Below, one piece after another: positions 2,641-25,313 of a stretch of DNA of 64,000 nucleotides (position 1 is the stretch's first letter; the number at the start of each line of letters is the position of its first letter). This DNA is from Clostridia bacterium. GTDB taxonomy: Bacteria; Bacillota; Clostridia; UMGS1883; UMGS1540. The stretch spans positions 864 through 64,863 of the forward strand of contig JAZNUV010000040.1 of the NCBI GenBank assembly GCA_045592445.1. The letters run 5' to 3'. The notes beneath the pieces were generated by a model. The model saw only the letters and a program-made list of their open reading frames with translations. It did not search any database and was not told the DNA's origin. The position numbers were made by a program, and so were the translations under genes.

Positions 2641-5418
2641 CTACTCTTTAATAATGTCGGCGCAACGGGCACAAAGCGTTGGATGTGCCGCATCATCCCC
2701 CACTGTTTTGCTGTATATCCAACAACGTTCACACTTTTCGCCCTCGGGTTCAGTTACAAGTATTGAAAGACCTTCTGTTTCACCCGAAAAAGCTTCGCTC
2801 GGTGCCGCAGTTTCTTCAACGTGGACTGAGGAAACAATAAATAACGTTGTCAACGTATCGTCAAAGCTTCTTAAAAATTCTGCCATATCTGCGGATGCAT
2901 ACAGAATAACACCTGCACCCACCGAATTACCAATTTTTTTCTCAGCACGTGCGTTTTCAAGCGCTTTTGAAACATCGGCACGCACCGCGAGTAATTTATC
3001 CCATTTTTCAATAAACTTCGCATTGTATTGCACAGTATCTGTCTTTGGCATATCATTATATAAAATGCTGCGCTTATCATCCGAAGCTTTATGCGGCATA
3101 TGTTGCCAAATTTCTTCTGTTGTATAAACAAGTACAGGAGCCAGAAGGCGTACAATCGCATCCAACACATTGTACATAACACTTTGTGCGGCACGTCTTT
3201 CAGCACTATCTGATTTTTCTACATATAATCTGTCTTTTATTATATCAAGATAAAAATTACTCATGTCTACAACGCAGAAATTATGCACAGCATGATAAAT
3301 CATATGAAAATCATAACTTTCATATGCTGCAAGAACCTTTTTCACCATTTGGTCAAGCCGCATCATTGCCCATGTATCCAGCTCACCTAAATTTTCTCTA
3401 GCAACCATGTCTTTTTCGGGGGCAAAATCGTGGATATTCCCCAATATATATCGCGCCGTATTTCTGATTTTCCTGTAAACCTCAGACATTTGTTTTAAAA
3501 TATCTTTAGAAATACGCATGTCTGTTTTAAAGTCTGCAGACACAACCCAAAGGCGTAAAATATCCGCACCAAATTCTTTTATAATATCTTTAGGACTTAC
3601 ACCATTGCCACGTGATTTAGACATTTTTTGACCATCTGTATCCACAATCATGCCATGTGTGATAACAGTTTTATAGGGTGCCTGCCCTTTTGCTGCAATT
3701 GCAGTCAAAAGCGATGACTGGAACCAACCACGATATTGGTCATTTCCCTCTAAATACATATCTGCAGGGAATTCGAGTCCCTCTTTTACTTCTAAAACAC
3801 CCGCATGGCTGGAACCGGAATCAAACCAAACGTCCATAATGTCTTTTTCTTTTGTGAAATGCGTGTGTCCGCACTTACATTTTGTGCCGGCAGGCAGAAT
3901 TTCCTCTGCTTCCATTTCATACCATGCACCACTTCCCTTTTCACGGAATAATGCAGCTACGTTTCGAATGGTATCATCATTGATAAGAGGTTCACCGCAT
4001 TCAGCACAGTAGAAAATCGGAATTGGTACACCCCATGTACGTTGACGAGATATACACCAATCCGCCCTGTCAAGCACCATGCTTGTAATACGTTCCTCGC
4101 CCCATTTCGGAATCCAACGGACCTTACGAATTGCCTCTACTGCCGCATCTTTAATACTGTCAACCGATGCAAACCATTGTTCTGTTGCGCGGAATACAAT
4201 CGGTTCGTGGCAACGCCAGCAATGCGGATATTGATGTATGATTTCCTGCACAGCAAACAAAGCACCTACACTCTTGAGTTTTTCAAGAATGGCCGCGTTG
4301 GATTTTTCATAGTACATACCTGCAAATTCACCGGCAAGTTCGTTTAAATAGCCCTTACTGTCGACAGGAACCAAAATCGGAATTTCTTTGTACGGGCGGC
4401 AAGCAACATAGTCCTCCGCACCATGACCGGGTGCCGTATGCACACAACCTGTGCCGGCATCTAAGGTTACATGTTCACCTACAATTACAAGCGAACTTCT
4501 ATCCATGAAAGGATGCTTACACTTTATATATTCCAAATCTCGTCCGTAAAACGTGCCAACCTTCTCATATGTGGCAATACCGCCTGCTTGCATCACACTT
4601 TCGACAAGTTCTGATGCAATTACATACACTTCCCCATCCACTTTAATAAGGCTGTACTCAAAATCAGGATTAACAGCAATGGCTACATTTCCAGGGAGCG
4701 TCCATGTCGTTGTGGTCCAGATAACAAAATATACAGGCTCAGATATATTTTGAAACAAGCCTTTATCGTCTGAAACACAAAACTTTACAAATATAGAATT
4801 CGTCTTATCTTCGTTATATTCAATCTCCGCTTCTGCAAGCGCTGTTTCACAATCGGGGCACCAATAAATTGGCTTTAATCCTTTATAGATATAGCCTTTC
4901 TTTGCCATTTCGCCAAAAATCTCAATCTGTTTTGCTTCAAATAAGGGGTCTAATGTAACGTAGGAATTATCATAATCACCCAAGGCACCAAGACGGCGAA
5001 TCTGCGCTTTCTGATTCTCAACATAACCCATTGCAAACTCTTTGCATATCTCGCGGAACTGTGATATAGATACTTCACTGCGGTTAATCCCCAGTTTTTT
5101 TATCGCTTGCCGTTCTATCGGCAAACCATGCGTATCCCAACCATGAATATAAGGCGCACGGTATCCGCTCATATTCTTATATCGTACAACTATATCCTTT
5201 AATGTTTTGTTAAGCGCATGTCCCATATGCATATCGCCATTTGCATACGGTGGACCGTCATGTAAAATAAATAGCGGTTTTTCAGCATTCTTCTCCATAA
5301 GACCGCTGTATAAATCCATGTCATTCCACTTCTCCAGCGTTTCCGGCTCGCGTACGGGTAAATTACCACGCATCGGAAACTCTGTTTGCGGCAAATTTAA
5401 TGTTTTACTGTAATCCAT
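2641..5418 (-). CDS. ileS: isoleucine--tRNA ligase
   Basis: 925 aa with HMGHALN (HIGH) and KMSKSRGN (KMSKS) class-I motifs and C-terminal zinc-binding cysteines. Confidence 0.95.
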   Translation of the reverse strand: MDYSKTLNLPQTEFPMRGNLPVREPETLEKWNDMDLYSGLMEKNAEKPLFILHDGPPYANGDMHMGHALNKTLKDIVVRYKNMSGYRAPYIHGWDTHGLPIERQAIKKLGINRSEVSISQFREICKEFAMGYVENQKAQIRRLGALGDYDNSYVTLDPLFEAKQIEIFGEMAKKGYIYKGLKPIYWCPDCETALAEAEIEYNEDKTNSIFVKFCVSDDKGLFQNISEPVYFVIWTTTTWTLPGNVAIAVNPDFEYSLIKVDGEVYVIASELVESVMQAGGIATYEKVGTFYGRDLEYIKCKHPFMDRSSLVIVGEHVTLDAGTGCVHTAPGHGAEDYVACRPYKEIPILVPVDSKGYLNELAGEFAGMYYEKSNAAILEKLKSVGALFAVQEIIHQYPHCWRCHEPIVFRATEQWFASVDSIKDAAVEAIRKVRWIPKWGEERITSMVLDRADWCISRQRTWGVPIPIFYCAECGEPLINDDTIRNVAALFREKGSGAWYEMEAEEILPAGTKCKCGHTHFTKEKDIMDVWFDSGSSHAGVLEVKEGLEFPADMYLEGNDQYRGWFQSSLLTAIAAKGQAPYKTVITHGMIVDTDGQKMSKSRGNGVSPKDIIKEFGADILRLWVVSADFKTDMRISKDILKQMSEVYRKIRNTARYILGNIHDFAPEKDMVARENLGELDTWAMMRLDQMVKKVLAAYESYDFHMIYHAVHNFCVVDMSNFYLDIIKDRLYVEKSDSAERRAAQSVMYNVLDAIVRLLAPVLVYTTEEIWQHMPHKASDDKRSILYNDMPKTDTVQYNAKFIEKWDKLLAVRADVSKALENARAEKKIGNSVGAGVILYASADMAEFLRSFDDTLTTLFIVSSVHVEETAAPSEAFSGETEGLSILVTEPEGEKCERCWIYSKTVGDDAAHPTLCARCADIIKE

Positions 5419-5470: not shown

Positions 5471-6034
5471 TTAAGCATCAAGTTTTGGAATCTGTATAGT
5501 TGCTGCATCCATAGAAACATCCTGTATTGACGAAGATTTTATATCTACGGAAACAGGGGCAACTTTGACTTCACTTGCATGCTCCGAAATCATTCCGTTT
5601 AAAATTTCAATTTGTGCACGAAGCTGAGAAATTTGCCGTGCTGCAAATACATTGATGCATCGTTCAATGTCATGTTGTTTTTGCTGCATAGATTGCACAT
5701 TCTCTTCTGCTTCTTTTGCAATATACTGTGCCTTCATTTCTGCTTCTTTTGTAATATTCTGTGCCTTTTCCTGGGCAGCACGTACAGCAGCATCACTGCT
5801 TGTCTGTGCCAAAAGCAACGCATTTTGCAAGGAATCTTCCATTGCTTTGTATTTTTCGACTACGCTTTCAAGCATGGCAATTTTATCACGATTTGCAATA
5901 TTTTCTTTGTATAACGTTTCATAATCATTGCAAAGTTCGTGAAAAACTCCCTCTACGTCATCCTTTTTATACCCACCCATAAAGGCATTGCCAAATTCGA
6001 TTTTTTCGAGCTCTAAAGGTGTATACATATTCAC
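5471..6034 (-). CDS. divIVA: DivIVA domain cell-division protein
   Basis: N-terminal LTPLELEKIEF...GYKKDDVEGVF DivIVA motif; coiled-coil remainder; conserved position. Confidence 0.85.
   Translation of the reverse strand: MNMYTPLELEKIEFGNAFMGGYKKDDVEGVFHELCNDYETLYKENIANRDKIAMLESVVEKYKAMEDSLQNALLLAQTSSDAAVRAAQEKAQNITKEAEMKAQYIAKEAEENVQSMQQKQHDIERCINVFAARQISQLRAQIEILNGMISEHASEVKVAPVSVDIKSSSIQDVSMDAATIQIPKLDA
5705..5770. repeat. 33-bp imperfect tandem duplication inside divIVA coiled-coil region
   Basis: TTCTGCTTCTTTTGCAATATACTGTGCCTTCA then TTTCTGCTTCTTTTGTAATATTCTGTGCCTTTT; encodes KAQNITKEAE / KAQYIAKEAE. Confidence 0.6.
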
Positions 6035-6055
6035 CCATCCTTTGTATTCTATTTT

Positions 6056-6538
6056 TTACAGTGTCCAGGGAAAAAATCCTTTGTTTTTCAGCTCATCGCG
6101 TACATCTCCGGCAATGCTGACATTGTAAGGTGCAATTAAGAAAATACCACCGGAAACCTTTTGGATATTACCTTCTAATGCATAAACAACACCACTTATA
6201 AAATCAAGCACTTTAACTGCATCTTCTTTTGTTAAATCTTCAAGATTTACAACAACAGCCTTTTTTGCTTTCAGTCTGTCCGCAATTTCGCTTGCGTCTT
6301 CATATTCCGCCGGTTGTAAAACGGCAACCTCAAGTTGCGTAGTTGCTGTCATGCTGACAACTCTGTTTGTTCCCACCGAAGAATTTGAAGTCTTTTTGTA
6401 GCTTGTAAACATCTTAGGTTCACTCTTCGGTTTTACAAGTTCCTCTTCAACCTCGAATTCTTCAAACTCATCCTCTTCATTACCAAAGAAAATTTCGCCA
6501 AGCTTACCAAATATTTTTGCCACTTTTTTTACCTCCAT
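6056..6538 (-). CDS. sepF: cell division protein SepF
   Basis: C-terminal SepF core (VVNLEDLTKEDAVKVLDFISGVVYALEGNIQKV); synteny between yggS and divIVA. Confidence 0.85.
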   Translation of the reverse strand: MEVKKVAKIFGKLGEIFFGNEEDEFEEFEVEEELVKPKSEPKMFTSYKKTSNSSVGTNRVVSMTATTQLEVAVLQPAEYEDASEIADRLKAKKAVVVNLEDLTKEDAVKVLDFISGVVYALEGNIQKVSGGIFLIAPYNVSIAGDVRDELKNKGFFPWTL

Positions 6539-21713: not shown

Positions 21714-21905
21714 ATGAATAAGCAACAAAACGGTAATACTTTAGACAATGTCAAATGTGTTGTTGACAGCTGCTGTTTCAACACCTGTAACGGCGAATGT
21801 ACTGCAAATGCAATTGAAGTTAAGCCCCGCGGTGTATTCGGTGAAACAGGTACAGACTGCGCAACCTATATTAAACGCGAAGATAGCAAGGGATGTAGTC
21901 AGTAG
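21714..21905 (+). CDS. DUF1540-like small cysteine-rich protein
   Basis: 63 aa; strong GGAGGT RBS 7 nt upstream; two copies of the C-x-V-x-x-C...C-x-A motif (CVVDSCCFNTCNGECTANAIEV) typical of DUF1540 proteins from endospore formers. Confidence 0.6.
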   Translation: MNKQQNGNTLDNVKCVVDSCCFNTCNGECTANAIEVKPRGVFGETGTDCATYIKREDSKGCSQ

Positions 21906-21953: not shown

Positions 21954-23435
21954 TTATAATGCAAGTAAAGATTGAATCATATCGCGCATGGCCGACGGCG
22001 CACAAGCATCGCTAAATCTTTCATTCTTTGTTTGCAATGCAGATAAGGATGCAGGAATCGGCATTCCGCTTTTTTCTTGTATTGCATCAAGTACAGCAAA
22101 ATCATCATCAATATCATTGCATCCAATCGCGTTTAATACGCTTTTCCCGAATTTATACGGACTCGCTGTAGATGCAAGAATTGTTTTTCTGTCATCACCT
22201 GTTTCCTTTACATATTCTTCATATACATAAAGGGCAACTGCTGTATGCGGGTCTGCCACATATCCATACTTATCAAAAGTTTTTTGGATTGTCTTTGTTG
22301 TAATAGCATCATCACAACTTCCCGCCCATAGTATTTCCTGCATTTTGGAGAGCGTTTCATGATCAACAGAATACTGCCCTTCCGTCGATAGCCTTTGCAT
22401 ATAGTCCTTAATTTTATCTGTATCTTTTCCGGTAATATCATACAAAAAGCGTTCCAAATTGCTGGAAATCAAAATATCCATAGACGGCGAAATCGTAGTT
22501 TTAAAACTTCTGTTTCGGTTATATACACCCGTACGGATAAAATCGCAAAGAACATCATTTGCATTCGAAGCACAAATAAGCTTACCAATTGGCACGCCGA
22601 GCTTGCCTGCATAATAGGCGGCTAAGATATTACCAAAATTACCCGTTGGAACAACAATGTTAATTTCTTCATTCGGCGAAATATCACCATTGTCAACCAT
22701 CGTTGCCCAAGAGGACATATAATATACAATTTGTGGAACCAACCGACCCCAATTGATTGAATTTGCAGAGGAAAGCACAATCCCATTTTCTTTCAGAAAT
22801 GCATTATATGCATCATCTGTAAAAATAGATTTTACTCCGTTTTGTGCGTCATCAAAATTACCATCAACTGCGCACACCCCAACATTTTCGCCTTCTTGCG
22901 TAACCATTTGAAGCCGTTGCATTCGGCTTACACCGTCGCGAGGGAAAAAGACCAATATGCGTGTTCCCGGAACATCTTTAAACCCTTCCAAAGCGGCTTT
23001 ACCTGTATCACCACTGGTGGCAACTAAAATCGTGACCTCCTCACGGATGCCGTTTTTTTTCATTGCCGTTGTCAAAAAATGCGGTAAGATTTGTAATGCC
23101 ATATCTTTGAAAGCGCATGTCGGGCCATGAAACAGTTCCAAAATATGCAACGAATCATTTAATTTACGAAGCGGCGCAATTTTATCAGATGAAAACTTTT
23201 CTGCTTTGTATGCGCGGGATACGCAGGTATCGATTTCCGCATCAGAAAAGTCCGATAAAAATGCAGACAGAATAATTTTTGCACGCTCCTGATATGTTCG
23301 ATTCGAAAGTGCATCAAACCCTATTTTTTTCGGAAAATACTCCGGTACATATAAACCACCATTTGGGGCAAGTCCTTTTACGATTGCTGTCGCAGCCGAA
23401 ACCATATCCCCGCCACGTGTGCTCTGATAATTCAT
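21954..23435 (-). CDS. thrC: threonine synthase (long form)
   Basis: MNYQSTRGG N-terminus, PLP-lysine region FHGPTCAFKD, 493 aa. Confidence 0.9.
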   Translation of the reverse strand: MNYQSTRGGDMVSAATAIVKGLAPNGGLYVPEYFPKKIGFDALSNRTYQERAKIILSAFLSDFSDAEIDTCVSRAYKAEKFSSDKIAPLRKLNDSLHILELFHGPTCAFKDMALQILPHFLTTAMKKNGIREEVTILVATSGDTGKAALEGFKDVPGTRILVFFPRDGVSRMQRLQMVTQEGENVGVCAVDGNFDDAQNGVKSIFTDDAYNAFLKENGIVLSSANSINWGRLVPQIVYYMSSWATMVDNGDISPNEEINIVVPTGNFGNILAAYYAGKLGVPIGKLICASNANDVLCDFIRTGVYNRNRSFKTTISPSMDILISSNLERFLYDITGKDTDKIKDYMQRLSTEGQYSVDHETLSKMQEILWAGSCDDAITTKTIQKTFDKYGYVADPHTAVALYVYEEYVKETGDDRKTILASTASPYKFGKSVLNAIGCNDIDDDFAVLDAIQEKSGMPIPASLSALQTKNERFSDACAPSAMRDMIQSLLAL

Positions 23436-23460: not shown

Positions 23461-23868
23461 TTATGCGTATGCCTTTACCTTGTCACTGACATTTGCAGGA
23501 TTTATGCTGATTGTAATCGCCATTTGGATATTAAATTTATCACAAAGTGCGTTTGCTTTATCTAAAAATTCTTCCATCTCCGCCGCATCACCATCAACAA
23601 TCTTCAAAAGACTGTCAACAAAAATATAGGACACGTCGTAATTTTGTGCAACTATGCCGCACAAAAGTCCATAAAAAGCGTCATAAGTATTCAATCCAAA
23701 CTCTGCCGTGTCAACAAGGCGAATTTTATGGCTTATGTCAAAAATATGACGATTTCCGTTGTTAATAAAAACAATAGAACCCTTTTCGCTATTCACCGCC
23801 TCATGCACACTATCAAGCAATGCCTTTGTCTTTCCTGTTCCTTTTTCACCGAGAATAACTCTTATCAT
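23461..23868 (-). CDS. uncharacterized 135-aa P-loop NTPase-like protein
   Basis: Walker A GEKGTGKT at residues 7-14; Walker-B-like YIFVDS near residue 85; AGGTGGAG RBS; 25-bp and 62-bp gaps to thrC and pgi. Confidence 0.55.
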   Translation of the reverse strand: MIRVILGEKGTGKTKALLDSVHEAVNSEKGSIVFINNGNRHIFDISHKIRLVDTAEFGLNTYDAFYGLLCGIVAQNYDVSYIFVDSLLKIVDGDAAEMEEFLDKANALCDKFNIQMAITISINPANVSDKVKAYA

Positions 23869-23930
23869 TTCGTCTCCACCTTTCGTCTTTTTATTGGCTG
23901 CAAAGCGCCATATTTATGTTACACTTCGTC

Positions 23931-25313
23931 TTATATAAGACGCTGTTGCAACGCATCGCGTTCTTTTTCGTAACCCGGTTTTCCTAAAAGAGCAAACATA
24001 TTTTTCTTGTATGCTTCAACGCCGGGTTGGTTGAAGGGATTTACACCTAGTATATATCCGCTTATACCGCACGCCTTTTCGAAGAAATATACGAGATGTC
24101 CAAAGTGATAGGCATCCGCCTTCTCTATTTCGATAACGATATTCGGAACACCACCGTCATTGTGTGCAAGTAATGTACCTAAAAATGCTTGTTTGTTCAC
24201 ATAATCAACACTCTTTCCGGCTAAAAACTGCAAACCGTCAAGCGACCCTTCTTGCGAAGGAATGATGACATCGTTTGTTGGATTTTTAATATGCAGAACC
24301 GTTTCAAAAATATTTCTTAAACCGTCCTGTATATATTGTCCCATTGAATGTAAATCTGTTGAAAAGTCTGCAGATGCAGGGAAAATACCTTTTTGATCTT
24401 TTCCTTCGCTTTCGCCAAAAAGTTGTTTCCACCATTCGGAAATAAAATGCATTTTCGGCTCATAATTTACAAGGATTTCAGTTGTTTTCCCTTTTCTGTA
24501 CAAAGCATTTCTTAAAATAGCGTATTGATAGCAATCATTTTTTTCTATGTTTGTATCGGAAAAAGCATGCATGGCGTCCAAAGCCCCTTGCATAATTTCC
24601 GAAATATCAATTCCTGCAGCTGCGATCGGCAAAAGACCGACAGGTGTAAGAACAGAATATCTGCCTCCAATATCATCCGGTATCACAAATCTTGTATACC
24701 CCTCAGATAAAGCCATTTGATAAAGTGCGCCCCGCGCTTTATCCGTTGTGACAAAAATACGTTCACGTGCACCGTCTTTGCCATACTTATTTTCTAAAAG
24801 CTCTTTAAAAAGACGAAATGCAATTGCAGGTTCTGTAGTCGTGCCCGACTTAGAAATAACGTTAACTGCACAAGATGCATTTTCGCAAAGTTCAAGTAAA
24901 TCATTTAAGTATTGAGAGCTGATACTGTTCCCCGCAAAATAGACTTTAACACCTTTTCTTTTATCAGCGGATAAAGCATTATGGAAGGAATTAGTCAGCA
25001 TATCAATTGCTGCCTTTGCACCCAAATAAGATCCACCAATCCCAATGACAATTAAAACATCTGCTGTCTGCTTTATTTTGTTTGCCGCATCTAAAATTCG
25101 TGCAAATTCTTCTTTGTCGTATTCCTGTGGCCAATCCACCCATCCTGTAAAATCATTTCCAAGCCCTGATTTTTCATGCAACATTCTATGCGCCGAAAGT
25201 GCCTGCTCATATAGTGCAGTTATTTCATCAGCGTTTACAAACCCTTTTGTATAATTGCAAGATAATTTCGTCAATTTTATCCCTCCTAAAGTTGTTTCAA
25301 AACACATACACAA
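23931..25313 (-). CDS. pgi: glucose-6-phosphate isomerase
   Basis: PGI family motifs ([19 protein letters not shown]-like, [11 protein letters not shown]). The true start is probably a few codons inside the track ORF, which overlaps the ispF stop. Confidence 0.9.

Follow-up and report, generated by a model that had tools for sequence, protein, structure and literature searches.

Gene X, on the minus strand at positions 23461..23868 of the 64,000-nt stretch of Clostridia DNA that we analyzed (the window), encodes a 135-aa stand-alone minimal RecA/KaiC-like P-loop protein. It is best described as an uncurated, truncated, stand-alone RecA/KaiC-class P-loop core; we call it an uncurated variant of this class because it falls outside every curated family whose membership tests we tried. 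Our preferred explanation of its function, to which our analysis assigns a probability of about 0.45, is that it may act as a cytosolic ATP-binding, slowly hydrolyzing mini-RecA switch with nucleotide-dependent self-association or partner binding and a housekeeping role. The probability left after this explanation and the alternatives weighed below belongs to something else that we did not consider.

The evidence shows gene X to be genuine and under strong purifying selection. It starts with an ATG at 23866-23868 and ends with a TAA at 23461-23463, and a ribosome-binding site read from the intergenic sequence (GGTGGAG, 23874..23880, minus strand) lies 5 nt 5′ of the start codon. An earlier sequence-only reading had placed a 135-aa open reading frame with a good ribosome-binding site here; the coordinates and the binding site stand, and the frame is to be corrected to the minus strand. 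The product reads as a soluble, acidic protein; it has a mass of 14.8 kDa and a pI of 5.07 and contains no transmembrane segment (maximum 19-residue hydropathy, 1.07). A word-indexed search gathered 53 homologs, nearly all 135 to 137 aa long, at 30 to 90% identity, which disposes of the concern raised in that reading that the frame might not be conserved in relatives. Gene X is small, and its region is overlapped by several antisense open reading frames, as might be expected of a chance frame or of a larger ATPase gene in decay, whether fragment or pseudogene. The conservation data already refute this alternative, to which we leave next to no probability: comparison with the 90%-identical ortholog L008 gives a dN/dS of 0.05, the start Met is kept in 69 of 73 diverse family members, and the length stays at 133 to 145 aa across thousands of clusters. 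Relatives in at least 572 species-representative genomes and the good ribosome-binding site speak against it as well, and the truncated pseudogene that the sequence-only reading had named as a possible refutation is excluded.

The family is large. HMMER, run exhaustively over 1.84 billion representatives, recovered 1242 clusters (50% identity) at an E value of ≤1e-3 and 607 at ≤1e-10, nearly all of them 133 to 145 aa long and matched from end to end, and with a profile search the number of clusters at 90% identity exceeded 4000. One member alone was found on 632 contigs. In the longer members, a truncated X is fused to the C-terminal piece of some other, unrelated gene (NADH Fe-S, ALS small subunit, HPF); they were treated as assembly or frameshift chimeras, and no recurrent domain fusion was found among them. 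All 80 genome loci that we kept belong to Clostridia/Bacillota, including cultured Flintibacter, Lawsonibacter, and Pseudoflavonifractor. These loci were gathered with a narrower alignment (A1), so the sample is biased toward relatives of the query, a bias partly offset by six look-ups of more distant members. Residue counts given below as fractions of 73 refer to a second alignment (A2) of 73 diverse family sequences with 27 to 69% identity. The family is among the more abundant unannotated ones of gut Clostridia, including cultured Lachnospiraceae and Oscillospiraceae.

Sequences of this family are already in the databases, uncharacterized, covered by no curated model, and frequently misnamed PilT. 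Their public names are “hypothetical protein” and, in NCBI and UniRef entries from several Lachnospiraceae and Oscillospiraceae, “twitching motility protein PilT,” while one distant member is called “KaiC/GvpD/RAD55 family RecA-like ATPase” in IMG; literature searches found no published study of the family. If the PilT name carried by P0020, P0228, P0267, P0269, P0275, and P0305 were correct, gene X would encode a type IV pilus retraction ATPase. Yet neither gene X nor any of the 73 members matches T2SSE (PF00437), and the family profile matched PilT/PilU chains over the Walker A region only, with E values of 0.3 to 0.9. PilT/GspE proteins, of some 340 aa or longer, are marked by an N-terminal domain plus Asp and His boxes, features that gene X does not have; a solved PilT chain has 343 aa compared with the 135 aa of gene X. 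No pilus genes lie near gene X in any locus examined. The PilT alternative is effectively refuted, and we read the label as a misannotation passed on from entry to entry. In practical terms, work on gene X would allow the annotation to be corrected and a new model of the family to be built.

Judging from our searches, gene X is covered by no curated sequence family, which agrees with its earlier description as a minimal NTPase core of unassigned family; Pfam, NCBIfam, PDB sequences, PHROGs, and PADLOC returned nothing above threshold. The top Pfam match, nSTAND_NTPase5, spans the Walker A only (E value, 0.0014; 18.9 bits versus a cutoff of 34 bits). Used as a single sequence, gene X had no significant match in NCBIfam or among PDB sequences, and a profile of the 73 members retrieved from the PDB sequences only matches centered on the Walker A, at E values of ≥0.014, with KaiC not among them. 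The KaiC model (PF06745) did not match gene X at an E value of ≤10 and so stayed short of its Pfam threshold. Across the 73 members, Pfam gave scattered weak matches to generic P-loop families: ATPase_2 in 13, AAA_14 in 11, AAA_24 in 10, AAA_22 in 8, and KaiC in 1. The best AAA_24 match had an E value of 1.2e-7 and the single KaiC match one of 0.0035, and none of the 10 most divergent members scanned for AAA_24 matched it. The precomputed Pfam domains of the family include nothing but one spurious PF00158. PHROGs gave no match, and PADLOC gave only Nhi (E value, 0.0098). Antiphage defense and phage ATPases are recognized by a PADLOC or PHROG match and a mobile context; gene X sits among core genes, and no mobile, phage, defense, pilus, or recombination genes lie beside it in the loci examined.

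The structural model is more informative on the fold. AlphaFold2, run with a 33-sequence alignment, gave a mean pLDDT of 87.8 and a pTM of 0.84, with no segment below 50. The model consists of strand 1 (residues 2 to 7), the P-loop, a helix (13 to 27), strand 2 (31 to 36), an edge strand (49 to 53), a helix (62 to 75), the Walker B strand (79 to 84), a short helix (87 to 90) and a longer one (95 to 112), the sensor strand (115 to 122), and a C-terminal helix (129 to 132). Foldseek matched it to KaiC with an E value of 2.7e-5 and a TM score of 0.73; KaiC, Rad51, and DnaB were the top structural matches, and a viral structure library gave the same class of matches. The predicted fold is therefore that of the RecA superfamily, closest to KaiC, with a three-dimensional core similar to those of its solved members. 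The sequence-only reading had held the protein too small for a canonical RecA/AAA+ fold with lid domains; in the model, its size does not keep it from being RecA-like.

Profile comparison leads in the same direction with less force. We aligned the family profile with the KaiC CI sequence (identical to PDB 3s1a_A, residues 1 to 254) by hhalign; the similarity is weak (pairwise E value, 0.005; probability, 7%) yet collinear. Walker A pairs with Walker A, the “RlI” edge strand of gene X with “FILD” of KaiC, and “IfID” with the Walker B element of KaiC (D145), followed by helix 3. The alignment ends ahead of the sensor strand and leaves the C-terminal third of KaiC uncovered.

RecA-superfamily ATPases have their catalytic Glu after strand 2 and a polar sensor residue at the end of the strand that comes after Walker B; the trans-acting Arg/Lys finger belongs to the C-terminal part of the domain, as do the strands covering the P-loop strand. 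Gene X terminates after its sensor strand and short helix, and the C-terminal third of a RecA-type domain is absent, including the covering strands and the finger. What the model shows is a RecA/KaiC-class core of which four core strands and a single edge strand are left. It shares its element order from Walker A to Walker B and the following helix with KaiC-type domains (KaiC CI/CII; archaeal PH0284/UPF0273, FlaH/ArlH, and SSO2452; COG0467), which are about 220 to 250 aa long. Unlike them, it lacks the C-terminal hairpins with the arginine finger, the CII phosphorylation sites, and a large part of the hexamer interface, as well as the EE catalytic pair, which is replaced by N36-N37. Gene X may show how far a RecA/KaiC-type domain can be reduced with its nucleotide site intact under strong selection, and it bears on minimal or ancestral P-loop proteins and on how a RecA-class ATPase might work without the half that carries the arginine finger.

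The nucleotide site itself is well preserved. The Walker A motif (GEKGTGKTK, residues 7 to 15; 23824..23850, minus strand) was read from the sequence and joins strand 1 to helix 1. In A2, G10 and K13 never vary, and G7, G12, T14, and K15 are conserved in at least 90% of sequences, with T14 in 71/73. The Walker B strand (YIFVDS, residues 81 to 86; 23611..23628, minus strand), also read from the sequence, overlaps the strand modeled at residues 79 to 84; its D85 is present in all 73 sequences and is the hhalign counterpart of KaiC CI D145. Gene X carries both hallmarks of P-loop NTPases, a GxxxxGK[ST] Walker A and an hhhhD Walker B at the end of a core strand. Both motifs had been pointed out before, in a stand-alone P-loop protein with GEKGTGKT and a Walker B-like YIFVDS, and both prove genuine and conserved in A2.

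The position after strand 2 differs. N36 (23761..23763, minus strand), at the C-terminal end of this strand, occupies the place of the catalytic Glu of RecA/KaiC-type ATPases, and the expected Glu directly after strand 2 is missing from the gene X of the window. Elsewhere in the family, the column is often acidic (D or E in 51 of the 73 A2 sequences), and its identity follows the clades: N in 19/24 loci with the order pgi-X-thrC, E in 22/30 loci with pgi-X, and D in Lachnospiraceae. With D or E at this position in most clades, full ATPase competence is conceivable for many members of the family, which speaks against the explanation that we prefer. Two further residues might contribute to catalysis. 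D44 (23737..23739, minus strand), in the loop after strand 2, is a candidate alternative catalytic or Mg-water-positioning carboxylate; the position is D in 47 and E in 17 of the 73 sequences, and D or E in all 89 locus sequences. R50 (23719..23721, minus strand), in the edge strand that aligns to KaiC “LFILD,” is conserved in 70/73 and is a candidate trans-acting or phosphate-sensing arginine. S121 (23506..23508, minus strand; Ser in 60/73) ends the last core strand at a sensor-1-like polar position. Away from the nucleotide motifs, G67, F68, G71, N/D76, and D78 (23635..23637, minus strand, before the Walker B strand; conserved in 72/73) form a conserved patch at a helix end, a candidate interface.

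Our preferred explanation, the slow ATP-dependent switch, builds on these features. The protein would bind ATP-Mg via K13, T14, and D85. With N36 in place of the D/E of other members, hydrolysis would be slow or would depend on stimulation; D/E44 and R50 are candidate catalytic helpers that could substitute for the missing acid. With the covering strands missing, the sheet edge beside the P-loop strand is predicted to be exposed and open to self-association or partner docking. The protein could then act as a nucleotide-state switch, with the exposed P-loop edge strand and the G67/G71/D78 patch as candidate surfaces, and would be neither a motor nor a recombinase.

Some of the structural neighbors of gene X do act on DNA, and RAD51 paralogs, DMC1, UvsX, RecA, and RadB are all strong matches to the model. 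Gene X could accordingly be a core-only DNA transaction mediator resembling RecA, RadB, or Sak4, binding single-stranded DNA or modulating RecA. The P-loop, of the GE.G.GKT type, we take to resemble that of RadA/Rad51. The weak matches to AAA_24, the Sak4-type model, in 10/73 members and the proximity of ligA (the gene next upstream in 4 loci, and no more than about 1.5 kb away in another 3) would fit such a role. “Core-only RecA” proteins are documented (PMC5928155). Archaeal RadB, phage Sak4/AAA_24 proteins, XRCC2, and RAD51C/D have a RecA core without flanking domains, as gene X does, but these core-only paralogs are about 200 to 330 aa long, with a full eight-strand core, DNA-binding loops, and recombination contexts, whereas gene X is about 40% shorter, with a pI of about 5, metabolic or cell envelope contexts, and no PHROG match. 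Gene X has no counterpart of the region in which the L2 DNA-binding loop and the C-terminal strands would lie. Recombination, repair, and SSB genes are not recurrent nearby. The gene X of the window lacks the AAA_24 (PF13479) match, and its context is chromosomal housekeeping instead of the phage recombination context of Sak4. The whole family is acidic (median pI, 5.1; no pI above 7 among 89 locus proteins) and free of hydrophobic segments, which argues against DNA binding and against membrane insertion. We regard a role as DNA mediator as very improbable.

The genomic neighborhood places gene X among core genes, all on the minus strand and identified by Pfam, in the order carD, ispD, ispF, pgi, X, thrC, metallophosphoesterase, and gatC-gatA-gatB; the sequence-only reading had spoken of a core metabolic and translation-factor operon, and translation factors are not among these neighbors. 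The upstream partner, pgi (23931..25313, minus strand; Pfam PGI), encodes glucose-6-phosphate isomerase; its listed TTG start probably lies some 14 codons too far in the 5′ direction, as orthologs have 446 aa. Threonine synthase is encoded by the downstream neighbor, thrC (21954..23435, minus strand; Pfam Thr_synth_N/PALP/THR4_C). The gaps of 62 nt from the pgi stop to X and of 25 nt from X to the thrC start make cotranscription of pgi-X-thrC plausible. Promoter and terminator scans around gene X gave results at or below shuffle expectation, and the whole window contains no Rfam element.

To see how general this order is, we counted neighbors in 86 nonredundant loci, taking as informative those with enough flanking sequence. 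The pgi gene lies directly upstream of X on the same strand in 53/78 informative loci, with gaps of about 35 to 330 bp, and thrC lies directly downstream in 32/82. Beyond these two, the surroundings vary and include genes that we identified from their sequences as encoding SmpB, LigA, class I fumarate hydratase subunits, and galactokinase-like, Veg-like, and YigZ-like proteins. The pgi-X arrangement behaves as a conserved but not obligatory pair amid shuffled surroundings. In the closest ortholog, L008 (90% identity), ispF is directly upstream and pgi is not nearby, so the adjacency may partly reflect inherited gene order instead of function. The conserved thrC-X-pgi slot proposed earlier is partly upheld by these counts but is specific to a lineage, since the context in Lachnospiraceae is different. 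In that branch (about 33% identity; e.g., Laedolimicola), four independent loci carry PBP2, minC/D/E, rodA, mgsA, and usually an S11 peptidase gene, followed by X; downstream come an HlyD-like gene and then ylmE, sepF, and ylmH, or else unrelated genes. No obvious common pathway unites the neighbors in the window with those seen elsewhere (pgi, thrC, ligA, fumarate hydratase, mgsA, and DD-carboxypeptidase), a point against our preferred explanation.

Metabolic neighbors such as pgi, thrC, and mgsA, together with a galactokinase-like gene at +2 in 4 loci, could suggest that gene X is an enzyme of small-molecule metabolism, a kinase or a nucleotidyl- or adenosyltransferase whose compact RecA-like core would recall thymidine kinase 1, the ATP:corrinoid adenosyltransferase CobA/BtuR, or CobU. 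Among substrates related to its neighbors, one might think of a sugar phosphate of the Pgi node or of homoserine, which comes upstream of ThrC; thrB is not adjacent to thrC in the loci examined. Nearly invariant D/E44, R50, E/D56, D78, K89, and S121 could form a substrate pocket. However, the model contains no lid, lasso, or substrate-binding domain, such as the Zn-lasso/lid of the enzymes named, and the TK, CobA_CobO_BtuR, and CobU models match none of the 73 members and have no Pfam or NCBIfam counterpart in gene X. The best structural matches are the oligomeric KaiC, Rad51, and DnaB, with thymidine kinase (score, 11.2) and CobA (10.4) below KaiC and Rad51; the corresponding scores for PilT and SulA were 10.3 (rank 31) and 8.9. 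The carboxylate at position 36, a natural general base, is not conserved. Partner genes, finally, differ between lineages (pgi in one, rodA-mgsA-S11 in another), which argues against a single pathway substrate. We consider a kinase or transferase unlikely; the sequence-only reading had named regulators and kinases as frequent roles of mini P-loop proteins of this size. The more specific idea that gene X replaces homoserine kinase where thrC lacks an adjacent thrB was down-weighted, as the persistent partner is pgi and the Lachnospiraceae branch has neither.

In another alternative, which the place of gene X amid division and elongation genes in Lachnospiraceae would fit, the protein could be a nucleotide-binding but catalytically dead adaptor or pseudo-ATPase subunit that completes or caps the sheet of a partner through its P-loop edge strand or inhibits a partner in the way SulA inhibits FtsZ. 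Replacement of the catalytic acid by N36 in the clade of the window's gene X, and the missing arginine finger hairpin and strands covering strand 1, would agree with this. In contrast, the Walker A Lys and Thr and the Walker B Asp are kept (K13 and D85 in 73/73; T14 in 71/73), which is unexpected for a dead ATPase, these residues being lost in SulA and Elp4-6, and most clades retain D/E at position 36. SulA, a cell division inhibitor of RecA fold, has no P-loop, whereas that of gene X is invariant; the two show no sequence similarity and occur in different taxa, and no SOS context was seen for gene X. We judge a dead adaptor improbable.

Returning to the slow ATP-dependent switch, the two neighborhoods (pgi in the Oscillospirales-type loci and PBP2-minCDE-rodA-mgsA-(DD-carboxypeptidase) in Lachnospiraceae) weakly suggest a link between the hexose-phosphate node and cell envelope growth. 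In these hard-to-study organisms, the tight pgi-X pairing and the alternative place at the end of an elongation/division cluster provide concrete starting points from which a housekeeping function can be tested. A bolder form, which we hold to be quite improbable, is that the family represents a Clostridia-specific class of ATP-gated mini-RecA switches in which ATP occupancy would gate docking of the edge strand and the G67/G71/D78 patch onto a partner in envelope growth or division, much like a P-loop-bearing SulA or an ArlH-like modulator. Were this true, the hexose-phosphate branch point (Pgi, MgsA) would be coupled to peptidoglycan synthesis (RodA/PBP2, DD-carboxypeptidase, and Min/SepF), and gene X would be, among natural stand-alone NTPases of the RecA class, the smallest to have a cellular role.

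Our picture of a switch and of oligomers is drawn by analogy with RecA-superfamily proteins, to which, as for KaiC, the sequence links are weak. The gene for an S11 D-Ala-D-Ala carboxypeptidase also lies within about 2 kb of X in 15 loci, in three arrangements (X-S11, S11-pgi-X, and S11-X), and its recurrence spans two taxonomic orders. In a third clade, gene X overlaps a DUF1294 gene.

The pgi gene, which separates ispF from the gene for the 135-aa P-loop protein (here, X) in the window, is not an obligatory element of this neighborhood. The closest relative of X, encoded at locus L008, is 90% identical to it, and there X is directly preceded by ispF, with a gap of 127 nt (around 5870-6405); pgi was not found within 6 kb of X in L008. 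The locus otherwise keeps the synteny of the window, with carD-ispD-ispF on one side and thrC-metallophosphoesterase-gatCA on the other. Because pgi is missing from this slot in L008 and the remaining gene order is intact, the comparison of the two loci indicates that pgi was gained or lost very recently at the slot upstream of X. The metagenome-assembled genome RGIG9115 carries two different pgi-X-thrC loci, L038 and L075, in which X shares 46% and 41% identity, respectively, with the protein of the window; these represent either a genuine duplication of the pgi-X-thrC unit or a mixed bin.

In the window, the mechanical ORF listing places the 5' end of pgi at a TTG codon, giving a product of 460 aa and a 28-nt overlap with the end of ispF (25286-25313, minus strand). 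Since its orthologs are called at 446 aa, the true start probably lies about 14 codons downstream of the listed TTG. Beyond X, a 63-aa Cys-rich ORF (21714-21905, plus strand) lies between thrC and the metallophosphoesterase gene and runs in the opposite direction to these two genes. In two homologous loci, L001 and L002, the gene at the corresponding position is called with Pfam DUF1540.

Other gene contexts occur in more distant relatives. In L004, a DUF1294 gene of 92 aa begins before the stop of X, the two genes sharing 14 nt (3505-3518), which suggests that X is translationally coupled to this DUF1294 protein of unknown function. The overlap is also present in L005 and L006, within a Christensenellales-type clade about 30% identical. 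Four Lachnospiraceae loci (L088, L090, L094, and L096) share a morphogenesis cluster, PBP2-minC/D/E-rodA-mgsA-(S11 carboxypeptidase), with the methylglyoxal synthase gene (mgsA) inside it. In L088 and L090, X is followed by an HlyD-like gene (PF26018, 445-485 aa) and then by ylmE-sepF-(ylmH).

Six family members of 135-157 aa (P0020, P0228, P0267, P0269, P0275, and P0305) bear the NCBI/UniRef name "twitching motility protein PilT." We rejected this identity, as it is backed by no PilT/GspE family match, domain architecture, or pilus context; the name looks like a propagated misannotation. Three proteins of the representative library (P0194, P0159, and P0125) look like fusions in which the N-terminal ~100-120 residues of X are followed by a C-terminal fragment of another protein: an NADH Fe-S protein, the small subunit of acetolactate synthase, or HPF. 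The likeliest explanation is that they are chimeras created by misassembly or frameshifts in metagenome gene calls.
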